Shown: piece after piece, positions 830 to 62,823 of the stretch
Layout: each line of letters begins with the position of its first letter
Numbering within the stretch: position 1 is the stretch's first letter
NCBI GenBank assembly: GCA_023898465.1
Contig: CP060223.1
Span: 512,001 to 576,000 of the forward strand
Direction: 5' to 3'
DNA: 64,000 nt
From: Candidatus Nomurabacteria bacterium
Lineage (GTDB): Bacteria; Patescibacteriota; Patescibacteriia; HK-STAS-PATE-3
Made by a program: the position numbers and the translations under genes
The notes under the pieces: model-generated
Told to the model about the DNA's origin: nothing
Databases searched by the model: none
The model's input: the letters and a program-made list of their open reading frames with translations, nothing else

Positions 830-1876
830 TTAAATAACTTCCATCACGCCTGTATACATACCCATAGAACATGAATATGTATATCGGCCCGGTTGCGTTG
901 GAGTAAATTGAAAACTTTGTCGGTCAGTGGGACGCAAAAAAGTGTCAATACCAAATTGTCGAAAAGTAAAAGCAACCGCACAAGAATATACGTCATTACT
1001 CTGCAATATCAACTCCACTGGCTTATTCTTTTCAACCGCAAAATATCGGGGCGAGTACCCTTGACCCAACACGTTAATGGTTACTCGCTGCACACCGTTA
1101 GTAAGTACCACTTCATCACTAACAGCCTTTGGTGTGCTTGTGTTCTGAAATTTTGCAATAATTTTTTCATACGTAATTGGTGCATCATACACATTAAGGA
1201 TCCCGTTGAAGCTGATAAGCGACAAGACAATCAAAATAGCAGCGGCAGTTTTTTGAAACCATCCATGCATCGTATCTGAGAGCTTCGCGGTCATGACGCC
1301 AAGTAAGGTAAAAATTGGTGAAGTACCAAGCACAAAGAAAAACATAATAAGGGCTCCAGCTATAGGACTGCCACTAGTAACTGCCACCACTTCCATTGCC
1401 TGAGTAACGCCGCAAGGGATAAAGACGGTCAAGACCCCTAATACTGCGGGGGCAAATAAAGTATCGCTCTTACTTGATTTCTTCACAAAGCGCTGCAGCC
1501 AACGCGGTGGCTGAAATGCTAAGAAGCGAAAGATTGGATGCACGTTTAATAAGTTCATTGCTGTAGCAAACATAAACAACGCTGCAGCAAGTTGAAAAGC
1601 GATACGCACATTTAATCCTATCGCTAACACTGAACCAAGCCAGCCAAGCAAAAAACCAAAGGCGGTGTGTACAATTAATTTCGCTAGTAAAAAAATACCT
1701 ACTGGCCAAATATCTGTTCCGCGGATTCGTGCATCGCTAGATTTTAGTGATGTTTTTCCGTTTTCAGATCGTTCCTTCTGATTAGCTATCACGCCTGCCA
1801 ACAACCCCCCTTGGACAGCTAGGCAGGTTAAGCCACCGGTAGTTAAGCCTGCTAAGAAAAAAACCCAATAATTCAT
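830..1876 (-). CDS. DsbD_2/TauE-like polytopic membrane domain fused to a C-terminal cupredoxin-like domain
   Basis: 348 aa. N-terminal multi-TM region has Cys in TM1 (TCLAVQGG) and TM4 (FIPCGVT), the CcdA/DsbD-like arrangement. C-terminal roughly 100 aa ([12 protein letters not shown]...[17 protein letters not shown]) resembles a cupredoxin fold. The ATG overlaps the copA stop as ATGA. Confidence 0.5.
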
Positions 1877-4104
1877 ATGTGTGATCGAAACGTTTTTAAT
1901 CGTAAGGCATTAAGCACAACTGAAACACTTGAAAAGGCCATTGCAGCGCCTGCCCAAATTGGATTGATAGTAATTCCCCAAATCGGCGCTAATGCTCCCA
2001 TGGCAACGGGTATGAGAAGAACATTATAACCAAAAGCCCAAGCAAGATTTTGCCAAATATTCTTCATAGTTGCTCGAGAAAGCGCAAGAGTCACTGGAAT
2101 TAACCGTAAGTCTGGACGAAGTAACACAACTCCAGCGGTCGCAATAGCAACATCAGTTCCCTGCCCCATTGCAATACTTAGATCCGCCGCTGCCAAGGCA
2201 GGCGCGTCGTTAATTCCATCCCCAATCATTGCGACGCCTTTTTTCTGCTGCTGCAGCTCTTTTATTCGCTGCTCTTTTTCTTGTGGAAGCACCTGTCCGA
2301 TAACTTGCGAAAGTTTAAGCTCACGCTGCACGTGCTGCGCTGCTTCTCTAGTATCACCAGTGAGCATTATGGTCTGTATGCCCTGATGATTTAAGGCGGC
2401 AATTACGCTGGCGGATTCCTCACGTATCGTATCAGCAATACTAAAGGAGACGAGGGCTTCATGATTGTCGGCCACATATACACGAGACATATTCACTGGC
2501 ATGAATTGAGCCTGGTCTGCATCGATTTGGATATTCTCTTGAGCCAACAGTGAGGCACTACCAATATTCATTTGACCGATAGTATCCTTAGCCCGAACTC
2601 CTTTTCCGGGCACATCAATTATTTCAGGCGCTGTTTCTGCGCTAGGTATTCCTTTGTCATTGATATACTGCGCAATAGCTTTTGCTAAAGGATGATTTGA
2701 GCGTTCTTCAATTGTCCGGACACGGCCAAGTAACTCTTGCTGCTCCTGGACGGAAAAAGTACGCATCATTTGTATATCTTGTACACGGGGCTTGCCTTCC
2801 GTTAAGGTGCCAGTTTTATCAAACACAATGGTCTGCACACGTCTCCCCAATTCAAGCGCTTCAGCATTTTTTATAAGTATCCCAAGCTCTGAACCCTTAC
2901 CAATGCCGACCATAATTGAAGTGGGAGTGGCTAAGCCGAGCGCGCAGGGACAAGCAATAATAAGCACACTCACCATGCTTACAAGTGCGTGTGCCCAAAC
3001 TGGATCTGGTCCAAAAAATAACCAAAGTCCAAAAGTGAGCAATGAAAGAGCGATAACAATTGGCACGAAATATGCTGAGATCTTGTCAGCTAAATTCTGT
3101 ACCGGGGGTCGAGATCCTTGCGCTTCTTCAACTAAGCGTACGATTTGTGCCAGCATAGTTTCATCACCCACTCGTCTTGCTTCCATCTCAAAAGCACCGC
3201 TAGTATTCATAGTTGCGCCAATTACCTGGTCTCCTGCCTTTTTCTCTACTGGCAAGCCTTCCCCAGTCACCATGCTTTCGTCTACCGCAGAGGATCCAGA
3301 CACAATATTCCCATCAACAGGAACTTTTTCACCTGGCTTCACTAAAATACGGTCTCCTACACGCACGTCAGTAAGGGGAAGATCCTGCCAAGTTTTTTTT
3401 TGAAATACATGCGCTATTTTTGCCTCTAGCTTCAACAAACGCTTCATTGCTGTAGCTGCCTGACCTTTTGCTCGCAACTCGAGAAATTTACCCAGTAACA
3501 CTAATGTAATTACCGTAGCTGAAGTTTCAAAGTACGCTAGCTGACTAATACCTAATGCCGCTAATTGATTTTCGTAAACTATTGAGAATGCTGAGGAGGC
3601 ATAGGCTACGCTAGTTCCTAAGGCGATAAGCGTATCCATATTGGCCGTGCGATTTTTCAGCGCAGACCAAGCGCTCAGGTAATAGTTTTTTCCAGCCCAA
3701 AACTGTACCGGGGTGGCAAGTATCCACATCAACCATGACTGACGCAGCCAATCAGGCGCTCCTGGCACCATCGCGCCAATAAGCAATAGTACAGTGAGTG
3801 GGAAAGAAACAAACAATCTCTGTCTCAACTGACGCAACTCTTCGACTCGTTCCTTTTCCGTAAGATCGCCGTGATCATGTACGCCTATGTGCGCTTTATA
3901 ACCCAACTTTGCAACGGTTTGCCCTATTTCATACTCTGGAGTTGCATGAGGGTCGAAGCTAACTGCTGCTTGATGATTTCCATAATTTACCGTTGCCTCT
4001 TTTACACCTGGAAGTTTCTTTAGACGACGTTGGATATTTGCCGCACAGCTTGCGCAATGCATGCCAGACACATGAAAATTGATCTGTTGGACATTATTTG
4101 GCAT
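1873..4104 (-). CDS. copA: Copper-translocating P1B-type ATPase
   Basis: HMA motif GMHCASC, CPC transmembrane motif ([12 protein letters not shown]), DKTGTLT phosphorylation site and GDGINDAP hinge. Start placed at the internal ATG (4102-4104, MPNNVQQ...) rather than the 42-codon ORF extension. Confidence 0.9.
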
Positions 4105-4573
4105 ATTTTCCTGGATTTTTTTGAAAAGCCTTTTTACATCCACTCGCGCAAAAATAATATTTCTTCCCCTGATATTGCATGGCCGCGCCGGCCGTACTCG
4201 GAGAGACACGCATGTGACATACAGGGTCATGCACGATTGGCATAAGATCCTTCATTGTCCTACTGAATTCATCAGGTTTTTTATCGCCCTGTTGAACAAC
4301 AATAATGTCGCGAATAAGTTGACTCGCCTTAGCAAAATTCGGATGAGCTAAATGGTATCGAAGACGCTTTCCCAGCCGATGATAACTTACCGCTCCAGCA
4401 TCACGAAGTATTTTAAGATGCTGACTGAGATTTGCTTGTGGCAAACCAAGCATGTCTTGCATTTCCTCAACCGTTGCTGGGCCTTCTTTTAGTAAATGTA
4501 AAACCTCCAAACGGCGCGGATGTGCAAGCGCTTTTAAAAGCTTGGCGTGGAGTTTAAAAACTTGTTCATACAT
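4094..4573 (-). CDS. ArsR/SmtB-family metalloregulator with C-terminal YHS/TRASH metal-binding domain
   Basis: HTH region [11 protein letters not shown]...[13 protein letters not shown]-terminus DPVCHMRV...[14 protein letters not shown] matches the YHS/TRASH pattern. ATG at 4571-4573. Overlaps the copA start. Confidence 0.75.
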
Positions 4574-4591
4574 ATTCGCTATTTCGAATAT
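4572..4591. promoter_or_regulatory. Candidate operator: inverted repeat ATATTCG-N6-CGAATAT overlapping the start codon of the ArsR-family regulator
   Basis: Perfect 7-bp inverted repeat with a 6-bp spacer read directly from the sequence at 4572-4591. ArsR/SmtB regulators typically autoregulate from dyad operators near their own start. Confidence 0.3.
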
Positions 4592-4623
4592 ATATACTTC
4601 AGAAAAAACTGTCAAGAAATCCC

Positions 4624-5880
4624 CTATCGAATGTAGACGACCGCGCCTGTGCTAAAGGTGTTTATATCTTTACACGCCTGACCTGGAAAAACCTCAGCCC
4701 GTAATTTACGACTCTCCAGCATCTCTACCATAAAACATCCAGCTGAACTTGTTCCTGAACGCAGCTCCAGAGTGCTGCTCAAACTTGATCTATCCCAAAC
4801 TTGGCCATCAGCGTAATAGACTTGCTCGTAAAGGTCATAGGCTACCCGGCCGTTTTCTGGACTAATATCAACTGGCTTAGCAGCGTCGTGAGCAATAGTG
4901 AACTGTGAAGCGCCATCTGGCCAGTTACCTATTGAAATTACCGTAGCGCTAGGGTCGAGATGATCTGGAGCGATCGCGAGATGGGTAGTCCAATACGCAG
5001 ACGGATCATTGCCCGCATAACCATTTGTGGTCCCATCAGGATTCATCACAAACCAGGTGCCAATTAACCGTCCATCAATATCATAGTCAATCTTGCCGCT
5101 ACGTGGTTCAACTGTACGTAAATACTGGGTCAAAGCTAGGGAGCGAAGTTCTTCAGTGTAGTACGGCAGCGGATCAACAGTATGAATCTTCCACGATTCA
5201 CGCTCATAATGCTCCGGCACCACGAAGCCGCTAAGCTCGCTCTCTGTATCCCAAACAGCAAAATCGAGAGTCTGCCCGCCGATACTCCCTATACGTTGTC
5301 CAGCCTTCACAGGTAAATCAATACTATTCCCCTGCTGCTGATAGGCACTAAGTATATCAGGTGCTAAACCAGTGACTAAATCATAGTAGTAAAATAGATG
5401 ACAACTCATGCTGAATACTATCCGAAAGTCTGTCACGGTCTTGTTCGCATTTTGCCCCTGACCAGAGTGGGTACGCGTCCCTATATCAACAATCCGCGCA
5501 TCGGCCATTGCGTATACTGGATAGGCATCAATAGGTGAATCAAAAGGCTCGGGTGAGAAGTATTGATGATCAATTGGGGTGACGTGCCCACCGATCATTA
5601 ATCCGTATGGGATAATAAATCCAACATCGCTAGGGTCCATGGGATAATCGGTAAGCAAGGGTTTGTCGGTTCCCTGACAATGTCCATGACTTAATTCCTG
5701 ACCAGCTACATCAGCCGGCGTCCTCGCCTGCTCTTGTGTATTGATATTTTCTTCATTTTGCATTGAGGAGTTTTGATTTTGACTAACAGTATTGTCGTTA
5801 TTTCTACGAGTGAATAGCACAATAAGCACTGCCAGAAGAATGAGGACAGCGATGATGACGAGCGTCGCTACTTTTTTCAT
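4624..5880 (-). CDS. Secreted/membrane-anchored hypothetical protein
   Basis: 418 aa. N-terminal hydrophobic anchor (VATLVIIAVLILLAVLIVLF) followed by a low-complexity N/Q-rich linker. No confident domain. ATG at 5878-5880. Confidence 0.5.
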   Translation of the reverse strand: MKKVATLVIIAVLILLAVLIVLFTRRNNDNTVSQNQNSSMQNEENINTQEQARTPADVAGQELSHGHCQGTDKPLLTDYPMDPSDVGFIIPYGLMIGGHVTPIDHQYFSPEPFDSPIDAYPVYAMADARIVDIGTRTHSGQGQNANKTVTDFRIVFSMSCHLFYYYDLVTGLAPDILSAYQQQGNSIDLPVKAGQRIGSIGGQTLDFAVWDTESELSGFVVPEHYERESWKIHTVDPLPYYTEELRSLALTQYLRTVEPRSGKIDYDIDGRLIGTWFVMNPDGTTNGYAGNDPSAYWTTHLAIAPDHLDPSATVISIGNWPDGASQFTIAHDAAKPVDISPENGRVAYDLYEQVYYADGQVWDRSSLSSTLELRSGTSSAGCFMVEMLESRKLRAEVFPGQACKDINTFSTGAVVYIR

Positions 5881-5969
5881 ATGGGTAAGTATAGCATAGA
5901 AAAAATAGCTTACTCAGTATGAGTAGATTTTAATAGGCATTAAAAGGATTTTCGCTGTAAAATATCTCT

Positions 5970-6446
5970 TTACTGCCCTTGCTCGAAATCCTTCAGGATA
6001 CGCAAGTATTTTGCTTGAGTATCACTACCAATTTGTGGATGCGTAAAAACCGGCATTACACCGGTTATTGCTATGATATTTCTTACTTCATCAAAATAGA
6101 ATCCATCCAACGTTGCAATAAAGAGCCAAGAAGGATTCCAAGACTTAGCCATCCGTTTAGCATCTATAAGCACATATTCAGGACTTAGTTGTTTTTGATA
6201 TTTTACCTCTATCAATCTGACTTCGCTTGTTGCATGATCAATGACAGCGAAATCTGGCGCGGTACGTAAAATATTAACTGTTGGATTATCTTGTGAATAA
6301 CCCTGCTGGATAAGCTCAGGGATAATTTTTTCATACCCAAATTCGAGTACTGTAAATTGGCGTGATTCGCGAAACATTTGTGCAAATATCGTTTCAGCAA
6401 TTTTACCTTTAATGAGATTGTGAGTGAATTCTGTTGAGGTAGACAT
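5970..6446 (-). CDS. Hypothetical protein with PD-(D/E)xK nuclease-like motif
   Basis: 158 aa with a PDFAVID ... EVRLIEVKYQ arrangement (D ... E-x-K) typical of the restriction-endonuclease-like fold. ATG at 6444-6446 overlaps the stop of the upstream small ORF (TAATG). Confidence 0.5.
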   Translation of the reverse strand: MSTSTEFTHNLIKGKIAETIFAQMFRESRQFTVLEFGYEKIIPELIQQGYSQDNPTVNILRTAPDFAVIDHATSEVRLIEVKYQKQLSPEYVLIDAKRMAKSWNPSWLFIATLDGFYFDEVRNIIAITGVMPVFTHPQIGSDTQAKYLRILKDFEQGQ

Positions 6447-6598
6447 TATTTTTTCTTAATAAACTTTTTCAACTTTACTTGAATGTAGGTTGCCGCAATA
6501 GTAAACAGAAGTATTATTCCAAAAGCAGGAAGAAATACTTTCAGCATTATTCCCATAAACCTACTTGTACCTTCAACAAGCTGAGGATCGGCAGGCAT
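6445..6598 (-). CDS. Small single-TM membrane peptide (50 aa), not in the ORF track
   Basis: Manual translation gives MPADPQLVEGTSRFMGIMLKVFLPAFGIILLFTIAATYIQVKLKKFIKKK. Its ATG (6596-6598) immediately follows the TAA of the zinc-ribbon ORF, and its TAA overlaps the ATG of the downstream 158-aa ORF. Confidence 0.35.
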
Positions 6599-6784
6599 TT
6601 ATCTTGTTTTCTTCTTATAGCAGCTATAACAAAGCGAACGATCGCGGGAAATAACTGTACCACAACTCCGGCACTTTTTCGTGCCATACTTTTTTACACT
6701 CGAAGACTTTTTCTTAGTCTGGCATGAGTAGCACAGTGTATACGTTCCTGTTGTTTTTGTTCCACAGCGGCTGCATTTAGGCAT
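6599..6784 (-). CDS. Tandem (double) zinc-ribbon small protein
   Basis: From the internal ATG (6782-6784): MPKCSRCGTKTTGTYTLCYSCQTKKK...CRSCGTVISRDRSLCYSCYKKKTR. Two repeats of CxxCG-x7/8-LCYSC. The annotated longer ORF begins with TTG in a different register from the upstream small ORF. Confidence 0.45.
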   Translation of the reverse strand: MPKCSRCGTKTTGTYTLCYSCQTKKKSSSVKKYGTKKCRSCGTVISRDRSLCYSCYKKKTR

Positions 6785-6789
6785 ACTTA

Positions 6790-6966
6790 CTACGCCCCCA
6801 AAAACTTCAGCGCCTCGTAGACAAAGAAAACGGGCCAGATAATCGCTTTTAACAAACCGAGTACGCCAATCCAAAATGAAGTCGCTACCGAGATATAGTA
6901 GATAGCGGCACCGATCAGACCGAGACCATAGAAAGCCCCACTACTCCCTGCATTTGCCTTATTCAT
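6790..6966 (-). CDS. Small membrane protein (58 aa), not in the ORF track
   Basis: Manual translation gives MNKANAGSSGAFYGLGLIGAAIYYISVATSFWIGVLGLLKAIIWPVFFVYEALKFLGA. A strong Shine-Dalgarno (AAGGAG) lies 7 nt upstream of the ATG at 6964-6966. Stop TAG at 6790-6792. Confidence 0.45.
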   Translation of the reverse strand: MNKANAGSSGAFYGLGLIGAAIYYISVATSFWIGVLGLLKAIIWPVFFVYEALKFLGA

Positions 6967-7000
6967 ATAACTCCTTAACTAATTATGTTTACAGGACAAA

Positions 7001-7258
7001 TTATACCACTTCGCGACGAACATAAAATAGACAACAAAGGGATACAGTCGCCGGAAACAAATATACCAAATCAAACCACCCTATTTGATCAGTGATAGTC
7101 AAAAAAATATTCAACAACATGAGTAGAGCAAGCATCCAGTAGGCCCACTTCTTTTTCAATCGTAATTGCCAAGTAAGTAAGAAGAGCGCAAAAGCATTTA
7201 CTAACGCAAAGCTAGAATAAAAGAAGCGGTAATCTGAGTCGCGAAATAACCAAAACAA
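7001..7258 (-). CDS. Hypothetical small membrane protein (TTG start; true start unclear)
   Basis: Hydrophobic 85-aa ORF. The reading frame stays open upstream with no ATG, so the start codon is uncertain. Confidence 0.2.
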   Translation of the reverse strand: MFWLFRDSDYRFFYSSFALVNAFALFLLTWQLRLKKKWAYWMLALLMLLNIFLTITDQIGWFDLVYLFPATVSLCCLFYVRREVV

Positions 7259-7391
7259 CGCAAAGCATACCCAGAAGGCCGCAATGCTATAGAGTAGTCG
7301 AATGGTAAAAGTGAAATAATTTATAGTCGAAGCATATTATTGATAAGTGGAAAGGAAAAGCCGCCGGTAAAGACCAACGGCTAGATGAAAT

Positions 7392-7679
7392 CTAGGCCGC
7401 TCGTTGCTCAGTCCTCAGGATAGCAGAAGCACGACGATACGCTTTGTCTCGCACCGCCTTTGGTACATCCTGCTCTCTTAAGGCACCTTGAATCGAGCCT
7501 AGCTGCACCTCATTCCCCTTACGATAAAAGGTGAGCACAAAGCCTTCAGCGCCTATTTCCACTCGACCATGTAGACGATCAACCTCCAGCACCTCGGTCT
7601 CTGCATCTTGTTCACCCATATGAGCCTCCTGGTCGGGAAAAAGCTCTTCTTGGATTGGTCGCATGTGTCTTTCACGCAT
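7392..7679 (-). CDS. Hypothetical protein
   Basis: The C-terminal 95 aa (from the ATG at 7677-7679) have ordinary composition. The longer 161-aa ORF N-terminus looks non-genic. No domain recognised. Confidence 0.3.
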   Translation of the reverse strand: MRERHMRPIQEELFPDQEAHMGEQDAETEVLEVDRLHGRVEIGAEGFVLTFYRKGNEVQLGSIQGALREQDVPKAVRDKAYRRASAILRTEQRAA

Positions 7680-7980
7680 ATATATATTGTACGCCTCAAG
7701 CAGGAAAAGTAAAAGTAGTCTTGACGAGCCCAAGGCTCGGGGTTTATTATAGCGACACTTCTCAAGCCGACAGAGAAGTTGTCTCAGAATCCGTTTTGTC
7801 GGCACTCTCGCGTGAATGTTTCGCGGTTCATCGAGAGCGTAGAACGGCGATAGGCTGATGGGACCGATCCCACTCAAAAGCCGAAAAAAAACGGGATCCT
7901 GCCCCAGGCATCAATACTTGTCGCCCGAATTCCAATCGGGAAACATAGATGCGCTGGGGCTCCATTTTTTTATAGATACC

Positions 7981-8008
7981 TAAAAGCCAGGAGCTGCCCT
8001 CTCCTGGC
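7981..8008 (-). terminator. Intrinsic terminator downstream of the anti-sigma-like gene
   Basis: 8-bp stem GCCAGGAG/CTCCTGGC (7986-7993 / 8001-8008) with a 7-nt loop, followed on the minus strand by a U-rich run (TTTTA then A/T-rich). Confidence 0.5.
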
Positions 8009-8034
8009 CTTTGAGGCTGAAAGGAGGAATGAGC

Positions 8035-9186
8035 CTAATTATCTATTTCAAAATCCCAGAGTGCTTGTACCTGCGACGCGCTTAGGCCGGTGCGTGTCGC
8101 AATCTCTTGAGCCAAACTTGAGGTGCTGGTATTTGCAGAGGTCCACTCATAGCGCTGTGTATCACCACGGCGGGCTTTAATTTCTGTGCCATCTTCACGT
8201 ACCCGGACTTCTATTTCCCATTGGGCTTCTTCTTCATCGCCGTGATCCTCTGAATCGTTTGAATTACTATTACTGTTATGTGAATTGGTATCATCATTCA
8301 CATTTCCTTCATGAGAGTTGGTTGCATCTACATGCGTATTCTTATTATCATTTCCATGATCATCATTGGTGTCAGAATGGTCATCACTGCTATTGGCATT
8401 TTGCAGATCTACACCATCATACTCAATTTTGATAGCTGCCCGAACTTGGGCTTCGCTTAAGCCTAAACGGTCGGTAACTGCTTTAATAATTTCTTCACGA
8501 TCAGTCGTAGTCAGGGTAAACTCACTGTGCTGATTTGCTACTTCAGCCTGAACAAAGGCTTGTGCACCAGCTACGTGCACTTCAATTTCAATTCGCTGAA
8601 GACTATGACTGTTTTGTGCGTCTTCAATCTCACGCAGTTTTACTTCAACGTTACTTAGCGTCGCTGCAGCATGCTCATTTTCTTTGGCTTCTAATTCATC
8701 GCGCACTTCAGCTACGGTTTGTTGCGCATTTTGCAGAGCGGAATTTACATGATCAGCAGCATCTCGAGCTAGTTGCTCCTTTTGCTCTTGCTCTAACTCA
8801 GCTAGCTCTTTTGCTCGCTCAGCTGCAATCTCAGCCTGGATGCGGAGTCGCGCCTCAGCTGAGGTGGCTAAATTTAAACGGACTTGCTCGACGGCTTGAT
8901 CAATACCAAAGAGCCAATCTCCTGGCTTGGCATTATTCGCTGCGAGGACAGTGCCGGTGCCGCTGCCTAATAACACGATAGCGATAAGGATGCTTGCAAT
9001 CATATTTTTGTGATTAAGGAAAAAACCTGATCGCTGCTTATATCGATCAGCTTCCGGGACTGTTACGCTCGATGCAGCCATACGCAAACGAGCCTCAATA
9101 CGTTCACGGGCAGCCGGAGATAAAGACTGAGAATGAGACATCTTTAACAGCTTGATAATTTCTTTTGATGAAAAATGTTTCGACAT
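8035..9186 (-). CDS. Membrane-anchored coiled-coil protein, putative anti-sigma factor (DUF5667-like)
   Basis: 383 aa immediately downstream of the ECF sigma gene. N-terminal cytoplasmic segment, one TM helix (ASILIAIVLLGSGTGTVLAA), a long Ala/Glu/Gln-rich coiled-coil, then a His/Asp/Asn/Ser-rich low-complexity block (DDHSDTNDDHGNDNKNTH...SHNSNSNSNDSEDHGDEEE). Confidence 0.5.
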   Translation of the reverse strand: MSKHFSSKEIIKLLKMSHSQSLSPAARERIEARLRMAASSVTVPEADRYKQRSGFFLNHKNMIASILIAIVLLGSGTGTVLAANNAKPGDWLFGIDQAVEQVRLNLATSAEARLRIQAEIAAERAKELAELEQEQKEQLARDAADHVNSALQNAQQTVAEVRDELEAKENEHAAATLSNVEVKLREIEDAQNSHSLQRIEIEVHVAGAQAFVQAEVANQHSEFTLTTTDREEIIKAVTDRLGLSEAQVRAAIKIEYDGVDLQNANSSDDHSDTNDDHGNDNKNTHVDATNSHEGNVNDDTNSHNSNSNSNDSEDHGDEEEAQWEIEVRVREDGTEIKARRGDTQRYEWTSANTSTSSLAQEIATRTGLSASQVQALWDFEIDN

Positions 9187-9190
9187 ATAT

Positions 9191-9736
9191 TTACGAATAA
9201 GAGAGTTGTTCCATTTCCTTGCGTAAGGCTTGCAAAGCCCTATGTTTCAATACGCGCACATTGAGAGCACTGATCTGCATTACTTTTGCCACTTCACTTA
9301 TACTTAGATCCTCTCGATAAAGCATATGGAGCAGAGTTGCGTAGCGTTCAGGAAGGCGGGTTAAGGCTGATTCCATTTCCCGCTCCATTATTACATCTGG
9401 CATCTCATCCGGATCACTTGATAAAGTATGACTCACGCTCTCAATATCAACCTGGGTGCGTTGGCCACGATAATGATCAATCAAGCGGAAACGGGCAATT
9501 TGAAAAAGCCAGGTAGAGAATTTTGCATGTTTCTGCTCCTTATATCGGGGCAATGAGCGAATCATTTCAAGAAAAACAGTTTGGGTTAAATCCTCAGCTG
9601 TTTCCTGACTACTGACCCGCATAAGCAAGAAACGGAACACCCGGTCTCCGAAAAGGTGGAAAAGTTCGGCCACCCCTTCTTGATCCCCTTGTTGCGCTCT
9701 GGCGACGATTTCCTGTACTTGGCTTTCGTGTTGCAT
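9191..9736 (-). CDS. RNA polymerase ECF-type sigma-70 family sigma factor
   Basis: Region 2 (FLEMIRSLPRYKEQKHAKFSTWLFQIARFRLIDHYR) and region 4 HTH (LSISEVAKVMQISALNVRVLKHRALQALR). ATG at 9734-9736. Confidence 0.85.
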   Translation of the reverse strand: MQHESQVQEIVARAQQGDQEGVAELFHLFGDRVFRFLLMRVSSQETAEDLTQTVFLEMIRSLPRYKEQKHAKFSTWLFQIARFRLIDHYRGQRTQVDIESVSHTLSSDPDEMPDVIMEREMESALTRLPERYATLLHMLYREDLSISEVAKVMQISALNVRVLKHRALQALRKEMEQLSYS

Positions 9737-59158: not shown

Positions 59159-59374
59159 TTATTCTTGATCTACTTTCTTCTTCATTTGTTTCACCGTATT
59201 CTCCATTTCCCCTAAGCGTTTCTTCAACTCTTTAGCCAGGGTGAGGCCCCGCTCAAATAGCTGCATTGCTTCGTCTAAATCTAAATCGCTTGATTCGAAA
59301 CGGTCGGTAATTTTTTGTAGCTCCTGAAATGATGATTGGAAGCTTATTTTTTTCTGTGATCGTTTTGTAGTCAT
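59159..59374 (-). CDS. xseB: Exodeoxyribonuclease VII small subunit
   Basis: 71 aa. FQELQKITDRFESSDLDLDEAMQLFERGLTLAKELKKRL matches the XseB pattern. Its ATG overlaps the xseA stop. Confidence 0.85.
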   Translation of the reverse strand: MTTKRSQKKISFQSSFQELQKITDRFESSDLDLDEAMQLFERGLTLAKELKKRLGEMENTVKQMKKKVDQE

Positions 59375-60639
59375 GTGTGTGAAGTGTTAACCGTTGAGTC
59401 AATATTTCCTTGATGAACTTGGGTGCGAATGCGCTGTCCCTTTTGAATACCTTTTGCATTGCGGATGACTGCGCCTGTTTTAGCATCGCGAGTAATGCTA
59501 TATCCCCGATCCAAAGTCGACTGCGGGGATAAGGATATGAGTAGCTGCTCGCTATGCTCTACACGCTGCCGCCAAGAAGTAAGCATATTCATAAAGCCCT
59601 GTTCTTGTTGCGAGGCTAAATGACTTAACTCTTGATCAGCTTGTGAAAGTGCTAAAGAGAAGCGGCGAAAGCTTGAGGTAAAGACTTGCAAAAGATTGCG
59701 CAATTCCTCGGTCTGCACTTGGGAACGATCAAGTATGCTTTGGATTGCTTCTTGGATTCGCGCTTCTTGTGCACGCAAGAGTGCCGTATATCGCACATCT
59801 ATAGTATCAAGCATTGCATCAAGTGCAAAGTTGATTTCTCGTCGATCTGGCACAGCCAACTCCGCCGCGTTTGAAGGTGTAGCCGCTCTTTTATCAGCTA
59901 CTAAATCGGCGATAGTCCAATCGCGCTCATGACCTACTCCACAGATTACCGGCACCTCGCTGGCGAAAACAGCTCGAGCAACCTGTTCATCATTAAAGGC
60001 GTGGAGGTCCTCGATTGAGCCTCCTCCTCGAGTCAAAATAATCACATCGGGTTTGAGACTTTGCATACCTCGCAGAGCAGCCACGATGTGATTTGCTGAG
60101 CCCGTCCCCTGTACTGGCACTGGGGCGAAGTGAATATCTGCGCCACCCCAACGATTACCTAGCACACGCAGGACATCATTATAGGCTGCGGCATCAGGAG
60201 AGGTAATCAGCCCGATGCTCTCAGGGAAACGTGGCAGCGCCCGCTTCCGTGCCTCGCTAAAAAGTCCTTCACCTTCCAGCTTGGCTTTTAACTTTTCCAG
60301 GGCTTGTTGTATTGCCCCAGCGCCCACCGGCCGGATTTCCATAACCTTGAAATGAAAACTACCACGACGTTGAAAAAGGGAGGGATAGCCAACCACCTGC
60401 ACTTCCATGCCATTCTCAATCGGCACATTCATTTCCCAGGTCATCGCGAAACAGAGCACCGCGCTCTTGGCATCCTTAATTTCAAAGTAGACTAAATTAC
60501 CCTTTGGCTCACGATAGGCCGTCACCTCACCCTGGACAGTGACCACGCCGACTGCTTGTTTCAAAAGCTCGCGAACGCCCTGGACCAGCTCGTGGACTGA
60601 GTAGATTCGTTGAGCGTTTTTTATGCGCATCTCAGGCAT
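59371..60639 (-). CDS. xseA: Exodeoxyribonuclease VII large subunit
   Basis: N-terminal OB fold (YSVHELVQGVRELL...VTVQGEVTAYREPKGNLVYFEIKD) and the catalytic middle domain. Start taken at the ATG at 60637-60639. Confidence 0.85.
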   Translation of the reverse strand: MPEMRIKNAQRIYSVHELVQGVRELLKQAVGVVTVQGEVTAYREPKGNLVYFEIKDAKSAVLCFAMTWEMNVPIENGMEVQVVGYPSLFQRRGSFHFKVMEIRPVGAGAIQQALEKLKAKLEGEGLFSEARKRALPRFPESIGLITSPDAAAYNDVLRVLGNRWGGADIHFAPVPVQGTGSANHIVAALRGMQSLKPDVIILTRGGGSIEDLHAFNDEQVARAVFASEVPVICGVGHERDWTIADLVADKRAATPSNAAELAVPDRREINFALDAMLDTIDVRYTALLRAQEARIQEAIQSILDRSQVQTEELRNLLQVFTSSFRRFSLALSQADQELSHLASQQEQGFMNMLTSWRQRVEHSEQLLISLSPQSTLDRGYSITRDAKTGAVIRNAKGIQKGQRIRTQVHQGNIDSTVNTSHT

Positions 60640-60735
60640 AGGGGTAGTATAGCATTTTGGATAAGAAAAACCGCGCCATCCTCCTTCGCATAAAGCGATG
60701 GTCGATAACGCGGTCTGCACGAGCTCAAAGGCGAG

Positions 60736-61908: not shown

Positions 61909-62823
61909 CTAACTGTCTCGCAAGCGCAGTCTACCCTTTACCCTTTCCACAATCCTTTCTTTGCCCAAAGCATCCAGCGCGGTGGTGAAGCGCGTACGTT
62001 CAGCTTTTGGGTATGATTTTTGTATGTGTCGAAAAAGCTGCGCCGCACTCATCGCTTCAACAGTTAGTAGGGCGACGATACGACCGCGATAAAAACGACT
62101 TGAGTCGTGGAAGGGACTGGCCGGGCGCTTTGTGCGCGGTAAAGCTTTTCCCTGCTGACGTAACTTCTGAATCTGGGGAAAGGCCTGACAGGTATTGCGT
62201 AGCGGGCAGGTTTCGCATAAGGGATCACGCGCGATACAAACAGTAGCACCAAAATCCATCATAGCATGTCCCCATTTCCAAGCTTGGGTGGACGGGAGCA
62301 CCGAGGCAGCTAAGACTGCCATTTCCTTTGTGCTCAATTTTGGCTGCGTGTCTAAGCCGACAAAAAAACGAGTCAACACACGCTCAACATTCGTATCAAC
62401 CATTGCTACGGATATCTCAAAGGCAAAGGCAGCAACCGCTCGAGCAGTATAGGGCCCGATACCCGGTAGCGCTTCAAGCAACTCCACATCGGCCGGAAAC
62501 TTACCTTTGTATTCACGGACTAGCTCCTGCGCGCTTCGTTGTAAGTTTATAGCGCGACGATTATAACCCAAGCCTGACCATTGCCGTAGAACACTTGAAC
62601 GAGGAGCTGCAGCCAAGGCGCGTACCGTAGGAAATTCTTGTAAGAAAGCAAAGTAGCGCGGAATCACCCGACTGACCTGCGTTTGCTGCAACATAATTTC
62701 AGAGACGAGTATGCGATAAGGGTCACGAGTTTTCCGCCATGGTAAATCGCGCTGATGGGCCGCGAACCATGCTAAAATTCGTTGTTGAAATTTCTTTCGC
62801 CGGGTTGTGCTGGGTAGCTTCAT
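61909..62823 (-). CDS. mutY: MutY-family HhH-GPD adenine DNA glycosylase (non-canonical C-terminus)
   Basis: N-terminus LPWRKTRDPYRILVSEIMLQQTQVSRV. An HhH-GPD core. A 4Fe-4S loop CIARDPLCETCPLRNTC (C-x6-C-x2-C-x5-C). The C-terminal roughly 70 aa are not NUDIX-like. Confidence 0.8.
   Translation of the reverse strand: MKLPSTTRRKKFQQRILAWFAAHQRDLPWRKTRDPYRILVSEIMLQQTQVSRVIPRYFAFLQEFPTVRALAAAPRSSVLRQWSGLGYNRRAINLQRSAQELVREYKGKFPADVELLEALPGIGPYTARAVAAFAFEISVAMVDTNVERVLTRFFVGLDTQPKLSTKEMAVLAASVLPSTQAWKWGHAMMDFGATVCIARDPLCETCPLRNTCQAFPQIQKLRQQGKALPRTKRPASPFHDSSRFYRGRIVALLTVEAMSAAQLFRHIQKSYPKAERTRFTTALDALGKERIVERVKGRLRLRDS

Follow-up and report, generated by a model that had tools for sequence, protein, structure and literature searches.

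Four very small genes packed head to tail along 5970-6966 (minus strand) of a 64,000-nucleotide (nt) stretch from Candidatus Nomurabacteria bacterium (assembly GCA_023898465.1, contig CP060223.1, positions 512,001 to 576,000; hereafter the window, at its full length) raise the question of whether such tight packing reflects one functional system or only a shared position. An earlier note, made from the letters of the window and a list of its open reading frames (ORFs), had likened the cluster to toxin-antitoxin or abortive-infection-style defence modules. Here, the comparative evidence does not bear out this proposal; we consider it likely that the cluster is a positional, probably co-transcribed set of unrelated small genes, whose one informative member is a solitary, mobile predicted nuclease. 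The four ORFs are, in order of transcription:

ORF1, 6790-6966, minus strand: 58-amino-acid (aa) two-helix membrane protein, H6760_02550.
ORF2, 6599-6784, minus strand: 61-aa double zinc ribbon, unannotated.
ORF3, 6446-6598, minus strand: 50-aa orphan with a hydrophobic helix and a Lys-rich tail, unannotated.
ORF4, 5970-6446, minus strand: 158-aa protein with a predicted PD-(D/E)xK nuclease fold, H6760_02545.

Successive gaps in this chain are 5, 0 and -1 nt. An AAGGAG Shine-Dalgarno (SD) sequence at 6976-6971 lies 4 nt 5' of the ORF1 ATG; the TAG of ORF1 is followed after 5 nt by the start of ORF2, the ORF3 ATG stands directly after the ORF2 TAA (TAAATG), and the ORF4 ATG overlaps the ORF3 TAA (TAATG). 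The chain, its junctions and its SD sequence are as the earlier note had described them, apart from the end of ORF3: the ORF itself is there, and its end had been placed at 6445, one nucleotide off the actual 6446. That two of the four ORFs are unannotated also proved correct, as the locus tags H6760_02545 and H6760_02550 (both exact NCBI protein matches, on a 1.08-Mb contig) are consecutive, the public annotation is without ORF2 and ORF3, and the exact sequences of these two were not found among 15 billion proteins. The tiling of the interval between ORF1 and ORF4 exceeds chance: coverage of at least 90% by ATG-initiated ORFs of at least 45 codons was reached in 3 of 20,000 dinucleotide shuffles of these 343 nt. 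Tight spacing and stop/start overlaps are, at the same time, usual for this genome; in the first 20 kb of the window every ORF of at least 150 aa lies on the minus strand, and the genes at 830-1876 and 1873-4230 overlap too.

One explanation for the improbable tiling and the stop/start overlaps is that the four ORFs form one toxin-antitoxin, abortive-infection or defence module, in which the membrane peptides and the zinc ribbon would sense or regulate and the nuclease would be the effector; such a module would gain from the nuclease fold of ORF4 and from the frequent location of ORF4 relatives near restriction-modification and defence genes. Gene neighbourhoods, however, argue against it. At 85 other loci of the ORF4 family, each inspected over up to 4 kb on either side as the contig allowed, tblastn searches with ORF1, ORF2 and ORF3 gave no credible match within 4 kb, and no two of the four families occur together at these 85 loci, at 5 ORF1 loci or at 7 ORF2 loci. 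Because conserved synteny of the four-gene set was the earlier note's own yardstick for the proposal, the module is left unsupported. Furthermore, ORF3 is an orphan, PADLOC-DB models gave no match to any of the four ORFs at E ≤ 1, the base composition of ORF1 differs from that of ORF3 and ORF4, and ORF1 occurs at about 75% identity in Bacteroidales, where no ORF4-family neighbour was found. We regard a single four-gene module as highly improbable, and, being unconserved, it should not go forward as a defence candidate.

Three of the four ORFs are instead conserved, each in its own way. ORF1 is, to judge from its relatives, a genuine gene that is conserved independently of the cluster. Its family is highly conserved, with 313 homologues in Patescibacteria and Bacteroidales that are about 60 aa long (67-87% identity) and 19 invariant columns across the two-helix hairpin, and its codon score (0.18) is gene-like. 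The settings of its relatives in three genomes differ, one following HU, one following an O-methyltransferase and one lying between unrelated hypothetical genes. A search for ORF1 among plasmids gave no match.

Likewise, ORF2 is by its sequence conservation a genuine gene missed by annotation. It matches Pfam DZR (PF12773) at 27.8 bits, just above the cut-off of 27.3 (E = 2.8 × 10−6), and its four CxxC pairs make up two C-x2-C...C-x2-C units, so that the tandem zinc ribbon read from the sequence by the earlier note is upheld. Among 1.84 billion representatives, searched exhaustively, there were 40 matches; about 12 of these are stand-alone proteins (59-74 aa) whose alignment runs over the full length, the best being 62% identical (E = 2 × 10−17). 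In the alignment C3, C6, C17, C37, C40, C51 and G33 are invariant and C54 is nearly so, whereas either Cys or His occupies the fourth ligand position, which we read from the alignment as C20. While these ligand positions follow DZR, ORF2 is, at about 60 aa, a minimal version that stands alone, and the DZR repeat elsewhere sits in long multi-repeat proteins (e.g., P0243 and P0245). The three homologues that were looked up lie in three different, unrelated gene settings. Because ORF2 is rich in Cys and Lys, its codon score is uninformative.

ORF4 belongs to an uncharacterised family of the PD-(D/E)xK superfamily that is widespread in, and confined to, Patescibacteria. It has 789 homologues at E ≤ 0.001; the best 120 are nearly all 155-161 aa long and 60-70% identical, those that are named come from Patescibacteria, and none carries a precomputed Pfam domain. 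The closest of all, P0002 (70% identity), comes from a Patescibacteria metagenome-assembled genome (MAG) that also encodes a heliorhodopsin (L001, 7144-7833), 2.6 kb further downstream. Across 40 diverse members, mean column identity is 71% and 47 columns are invariant, including E18, D65 (within APDF) and E80-V-K82. An AlphaFold2 model built from the family alignment is confident (predicted local distance difference test, pLDDT, 88.8; predicted template modelling score, pTM, 0.83) and begins with a long helix, followed by three strands, another helix and a fourth strand, i.e., the alpha-beta-beta-beta-alpha-beta core of the PD-(D/E)xK fold, with a helical insertion at 41-61. The D...(D/E)-x-K residues fall on strands 2 and 3 of the model, with an acidic residue on helix 1, as expected. 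The PD-(D/E)xK-like character assigned to ORF4 in the earlier note thus holds at the level of fold and motif, and E18, D65, E80 and K82 are the predicted metal-binding and catalytic set. Foldseek comparisons with PDB and BFVD agreed but were weak (template modelling score, TM, 0.35-0.5), and there was no significant sequence match in Pfam, NCBIfam, PADLOC or PHROGs, nor, by phmmer or profile, in PDB, leaving a sub-threshold TnsA-like match (E = 0.018). When the four ORFs and their neighbours were scanned against Pfam, NCBIfam, PADLOC and PHROGs, DZR on ORF2 was the sole match above threshold.

Of the four, ORF4 alone allows its biochemistry to be predicted: judging by fold and motif, it would be a Mg2+-dependent DNA endonuclease. 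Its closest known likeness is the archaeal Holliday junction resolvase Hjc (PDB 1gef, 2wcw, 1hh1) and related small PD-(D/E)xK nucleases; in contrast to these, it has neither a Pfam Hjc match (E ≤ 1) nor a sequence match in PDB that would place it in the Hjc family, its strands 1 and 2 are separated by the helical insertion, about 25 residues long, and it has an extra C-terminal helix, and its family is Patescibacteria-only, patchy and horizontally exchanged. It also resembles the homing endonuclease I-Ssp6803I (PDB 2ost) as a small PD-(D/E)xK protein, although identity is 14% and ORF4-family genes are free-standing rather than inside introns or inteins, with variable neighbours and no constant target gene. 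The resemblance to influenza PA-N and to bunyavirus cap-snatching endonucleases is at the fold level only (TM 0.35-0.5, identity 12-17%). As for the substrate, we tentatively favour a structure-specific nuclease acting on branched or nicked DNA; a modification-dependent nuclease comes next and is the more doubtful of the two.

A classical type II restriction enzyme is unlikely, because neither a methyltransferase nor any other partner is conserved alongside the family, and because its own sequence conservation is unusually high, far above what is usual for restriction enzymes. Members of the family share the PD-(D/E)xK fold with type II and type IV restriction endonucleases and with defence-island nucleases, and restriction-modification or defence genes are conspicuous in their surroundings, repeatedly including EcoO109I with Dcm, DpnI, XhoI, MmeI, Mrr-like, NERD and Shedu SduA, and also Abi_2 and a Schlafen-type helicase, although none is constant and PADLOC gave no match to ORF4. 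Clustering of the 634 neighbouring ORFs revealed no recurrent neighbour in more than 9 of the 85 loci. The 146 non-redundant immediate neighbours of ORF4 spread over 152 Pfam families, none of which has more than three members, and only a few of these neighbours are methyltransferases; in the window itself, a Pfam scan of the genes at 4094-9186 detected no methyltransferase near ORF4. At 44 of the 86 loci a gene abuts the ORF4 start (within 20 nt), and it is a different gene nearly every time, mostly encoding a large protein. As identified from Pfam matches or from reading of the C-terminal sequence, these abutting genes include DUF2779, a helicase with an MTES_1575 nuclease domain, methyltransferases, Mrr-like, Fic-like and acetyltransferase-like proteins and a lipoprotein. 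An analogous, non-homologous small membrane ORF ahead of ORF4 homologues was also considered and rejected, with a small hydrophobic ORF at only two or three of the 86 loci.

The start regions of the family are unusual as well. No SD 4-mer occurs within the 22 nt upstream of 84 of the 86 ORF4-family genes, and by reading, TGnTAnAAT stands some 7-9 nt 5' of the ATG in about 18 of them, mostly labelled Saccharibacteria. This position of the motif is a signature of leaderless transcripts, which suggests that an SD-less and often leaderless start architecture is family-wide. We found nothing specific in the literature on leaderless translation in Patescibacteria.

Identity within the family is about 60% both within and between genomes labelled Saccharimonadia, Paceibacteria and ABY1, with between-class maxima of 94-96%. 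Two assemblies each hold two copies, namely JAQVBZ01 (L024 and L029, 73% identical) and JACAFG01 (L055 and L086, 63%), which is compatible with separate acquisitions or with ancient paralogy. A phage or plasmid origin was rejected, as no relatives were present in IMG/VR viral contigs, GenBank phages or PLSDB plasmids. Direct or inverted repeats of the kind that flank a mobile cassette were sought at about 5400-8000 and amounted to short, chance-level matches, and the window contains no transfer RNA genes. Taking together the identity pattern, the double copies, the absence from viruses and plasmids and the SD-less starts, the ORF4-family gene would be an autonomous, accessory gene that is horizontally exchanged among Patescibacteria.

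Base composition points the same way for part of the cluster. Guanine-plus-cytosine (GC) content is 36-40% over about 5800-7400, against about 47% for the window. With a GC of 0.377 and a GC at third codon positions (GC3) of 0.302, ORF4 is the lowest of the 48 ORFs of at least 150 aa, and ORF3 matches it (GC 0.340, GC3 0.294); these two look like imported DNA. In contrast, ORF1 (GC 0.480, GC3 0.559) is native-looking and ORF2 is intermediate. Composition thus differs among the ORFs, and therefore the four are not one compositional unit.

The shared composition of ORF3 and ORF4 leads to a narrower proposal, that these two are a co-acquired unit in which a membrane peptide, coupled through TAATG, would control or localise the nuclease as antitoxin, immunity factor or tether. 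In its favour, both have the same atypically low GC and GC3, and the stop/start overlap is the sole evident translation route for ORF4, which has neither an SD sequence nor TGnTAnAAT. The codon score of ORF3 (0.10) is also higher than that of 95% of spurious ORFs (percentile value 0.077) and well ahead of those of the other five frames, and its frame, which stays open in only 1.4% of shuffles, is unlikely to be open by chance. Nevertheless, ORF3-like sequence is present at 0 of the 85 other ORF4 loci, where a small hydrophobic ORF abuts ORF4 in the two or three cases given above, and most members of the ORF4 family are autonomous and SD-less, many of them apparently leaderless. Translation of the A-rich leader that ORF4-family genes typically have would, moreover, give just such a Lys-rich tail as that of ORF3 (compare L039). 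No homologue of ORF3 was found among 5.8 billion proteins, PGAP and Prodigal do not call it, and it is likewise missing from Prodigal-type gene calls made on Logan contigs that carry this DNA. The coding status of ORF3 is uncertain.

A possible but doubtful relative of ORF3, to be taken as a lead only, came from a peptide-seeded metagenome scan in which the match was selected on an exact 8-mer. This protein, P0281 (93 aa; Ga0209777_10265067 and relatives, L100-L103), has the same MPADPQLVE N-terminus as ORF3, a transmembrane helix, a basic stretch and then a Topo-type C4 zinc ribbon; its Met1 aligns with that of ORF3, and a TdeIII-type restriction endonuclease is encoded 130 nt upstream of its gene, which would suit a peptide that accompanies nucleases. 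By eye, the protein encoded downstream of P0281 is membrane-anchored and resembles a histidine phosphatase. Outside the seed, however, similarity between ORF3 and P0281 is modest to weak (p ~0.012), and the 9-mer MPADPQLVE recurs inside a 549-aa helicase on a high-GC phage contig in IMG/VR (L104, 1661-1687, minus strand), the one match of a degenerate-DNA search of viral contigs. The helicase occurrence is most likely a chance match and counsels caution with peptide-seeded scans of huge collections. The TdeIII-like neighbour was tried as a relative of ORF4 and ruled out (hhalign probability 0.1%), and a search for ORF3-like peptides among plasmids gave no match. All in all, we judge a co-acquired ORF3-ORF4 unit to be unlikely. 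Its most specific form, a co-transferred pair in which a peptide of an undescribed family (MPADPQLVE, helix, basic stretch) is coupled to a solitary nuclease and controls or tethers it, is more improbable still; if true, Patescibacteria would have in ORF3 a new type of micro-protein that regulates a nuclease.

P0281, which joins an ORF3-like helix to a zinc ribbon, also bears on the possibility that ORF2 and ORF3 are halves of one former zinc-ribbon and membrane-anchor gene, split by a nonsense mutation or still joined by read-through of the TAA. The two ORFs share one frame with a single TAA between them (6596-6601, minus strand), and architectures combining a zinc ribbon with a transmembrane segment are common. 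Yet a shared frame has a prior of one in three, the ORF2 C-terminus coincides with the ends of its stand-alone homologues, and Met1 of ORF3 aligns with Met1 of P0281; the ends of the homologues thus argue for two native genes. P0281 has, in addition, the reverse domain order, and its zinc ribbon is of the Topo type and not DZR. We hold a split gene to be very improbable.

What the four ORFs would share is a transcript. The elements that bear on it, together with one further ORF, are:

Extended -10 promoter-like element TGGTATAAT, 7000-7008, minus strand: about 33 nt upstream of the ORF1 ATG, read from the sequence.
Terminator-like hairpin, 7359-7382, minus strand: after the upstream gene H6760_02555, with a 10-base-pair stem (6 GC pairs) and then a T-rich tail; upstream boundary of the cluster.
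Leaderless-type promoter TGCTATACT plus 7 nt, 5881-5896, minus strand: directly 5' of the start codon of the next gene (418 aa), marking the downstream limit of the cluster.
Possible fifth small ORF, 7001-7258, minus strand: membrane-like product of 85 aa that starts from TTG and is absent from the annotation, within the low-GC stretch of the cluster.

The element TGGTATAAT is the probable start of the ORF1-ORF4 transcript; a consensus scan did not report it because it has no good -35 hexamer. Terminators were found neither inside the chain nor beyond its end. Because of the upstream hairpin, TGGTATAAT, the lack of an internal terminator and the leaderless promoter of the next gene, ORF1 to ORF4 are probably, by position, one transcript. 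The downstream promoter type recurs in the window, as TGCTATACT followed by 6 or 7 nt and ATG is found at two other genes (starts near 62823 and 60639, minus strand); this suggests that leaderless mRNAs arise from extended -10 promoters in this genome, and the true start of the ORF at 59371-60720 is probably the internal ATG at about 60639. The 85-aa ORF lies 34 nt upstream of ORF1 and ends inside the TGGTATAAT -10 element. Its codon score (0.08) is borderline, its Pfam matches (DUF2127, MprF transmembrane region) are weak, and its exact sequence is not in the protein collection.

The reading we prefer, a positional set of unrelated small genes, combines these observations as follows. Three independently conserved small genes (ORF1, ORF2 and ORF4) and the orphan ORF3 would have come to lie head to tail, with transcription starting from the promoter-like element at 7008-7000 upstream of ORF1 and ending before the leaderless promoter of the next gene. 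ORF4 would have come in as low-GC DNA together with the ORF3 stretch, its position behind ORF1 and ORF2 being incidental, and members of its family would often settle in variable regions, alongside genes for restriction-modification and other defences. The ORFs, the conservation of ORF1, ORF2 and ORF4, the fold, the missing synteny and the split in composition are shown by the data; what we infer is that the four are transcribed together, that ORF4 acts as a nuclease on a substrate of the class favoured above, and that it was acquired horizontally. Several points weigh against it. The tight packing (TAAATG, TAATG) and the lack of an SD sequence or clear promoter directly 5' of ORF4 fit translational coupling and a possible lineage-specific link. 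The synteny comparison spans ORF4 relatives that are at most 70% identical and speaks to these, not to conservation of the chain within the lineage. The common composition of ORF3 and ORF4, and the location of P0281 beside TdeIII, hint at an association of peptide and nuclease. Finally, the activity and substrate of ORF4 are read from fold and motif only, and the taxonomic labels of the MAGs used in the argument for horizontal transfer may be unreliable.

Some genes around the cluster deserve mention in their own right. A metal-handling gene run lies just downstream of it (830-4615, minus strand), comprising an ArsR-family regulator fused to a YHS domain (4094-4615, minus strand; Pfam scan) and, by reading of the sequence, a 785-aa P-type heavy-metal ATPase-like protein (1873-4230, minus strand) and a 348-aa multi-pass membrane protein (830-1876, minus strand). 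On the other side, a 181-aa protein that by eye resembles an extracytoplasmic function (ECF)-type sigma factor (9191-9736, minus strand) adjoins a DUF5667 protein whose long tail is acidic and Asn/Ser-rich (8035-9186, minus strand); the pair at 8035-9736 may be sigma and anti-sigma.

For annotation, these results mean that the public record of this locus misses two or three real or plausible small genes, ORF2 certainly and ORF3 and the 85-aa ORF possibly, and that the SD-less, often leaderless (TGnTAnAAT-N7-ATG) start architecture of the ORF4 family is useful for gene calling in these genomes. For the biology of the group, ORF4 defines a large Patescibacteria family that has neither a Pfam nor an NCBIfam model, and this family could inform on DNA transactions in reduced symbionts.

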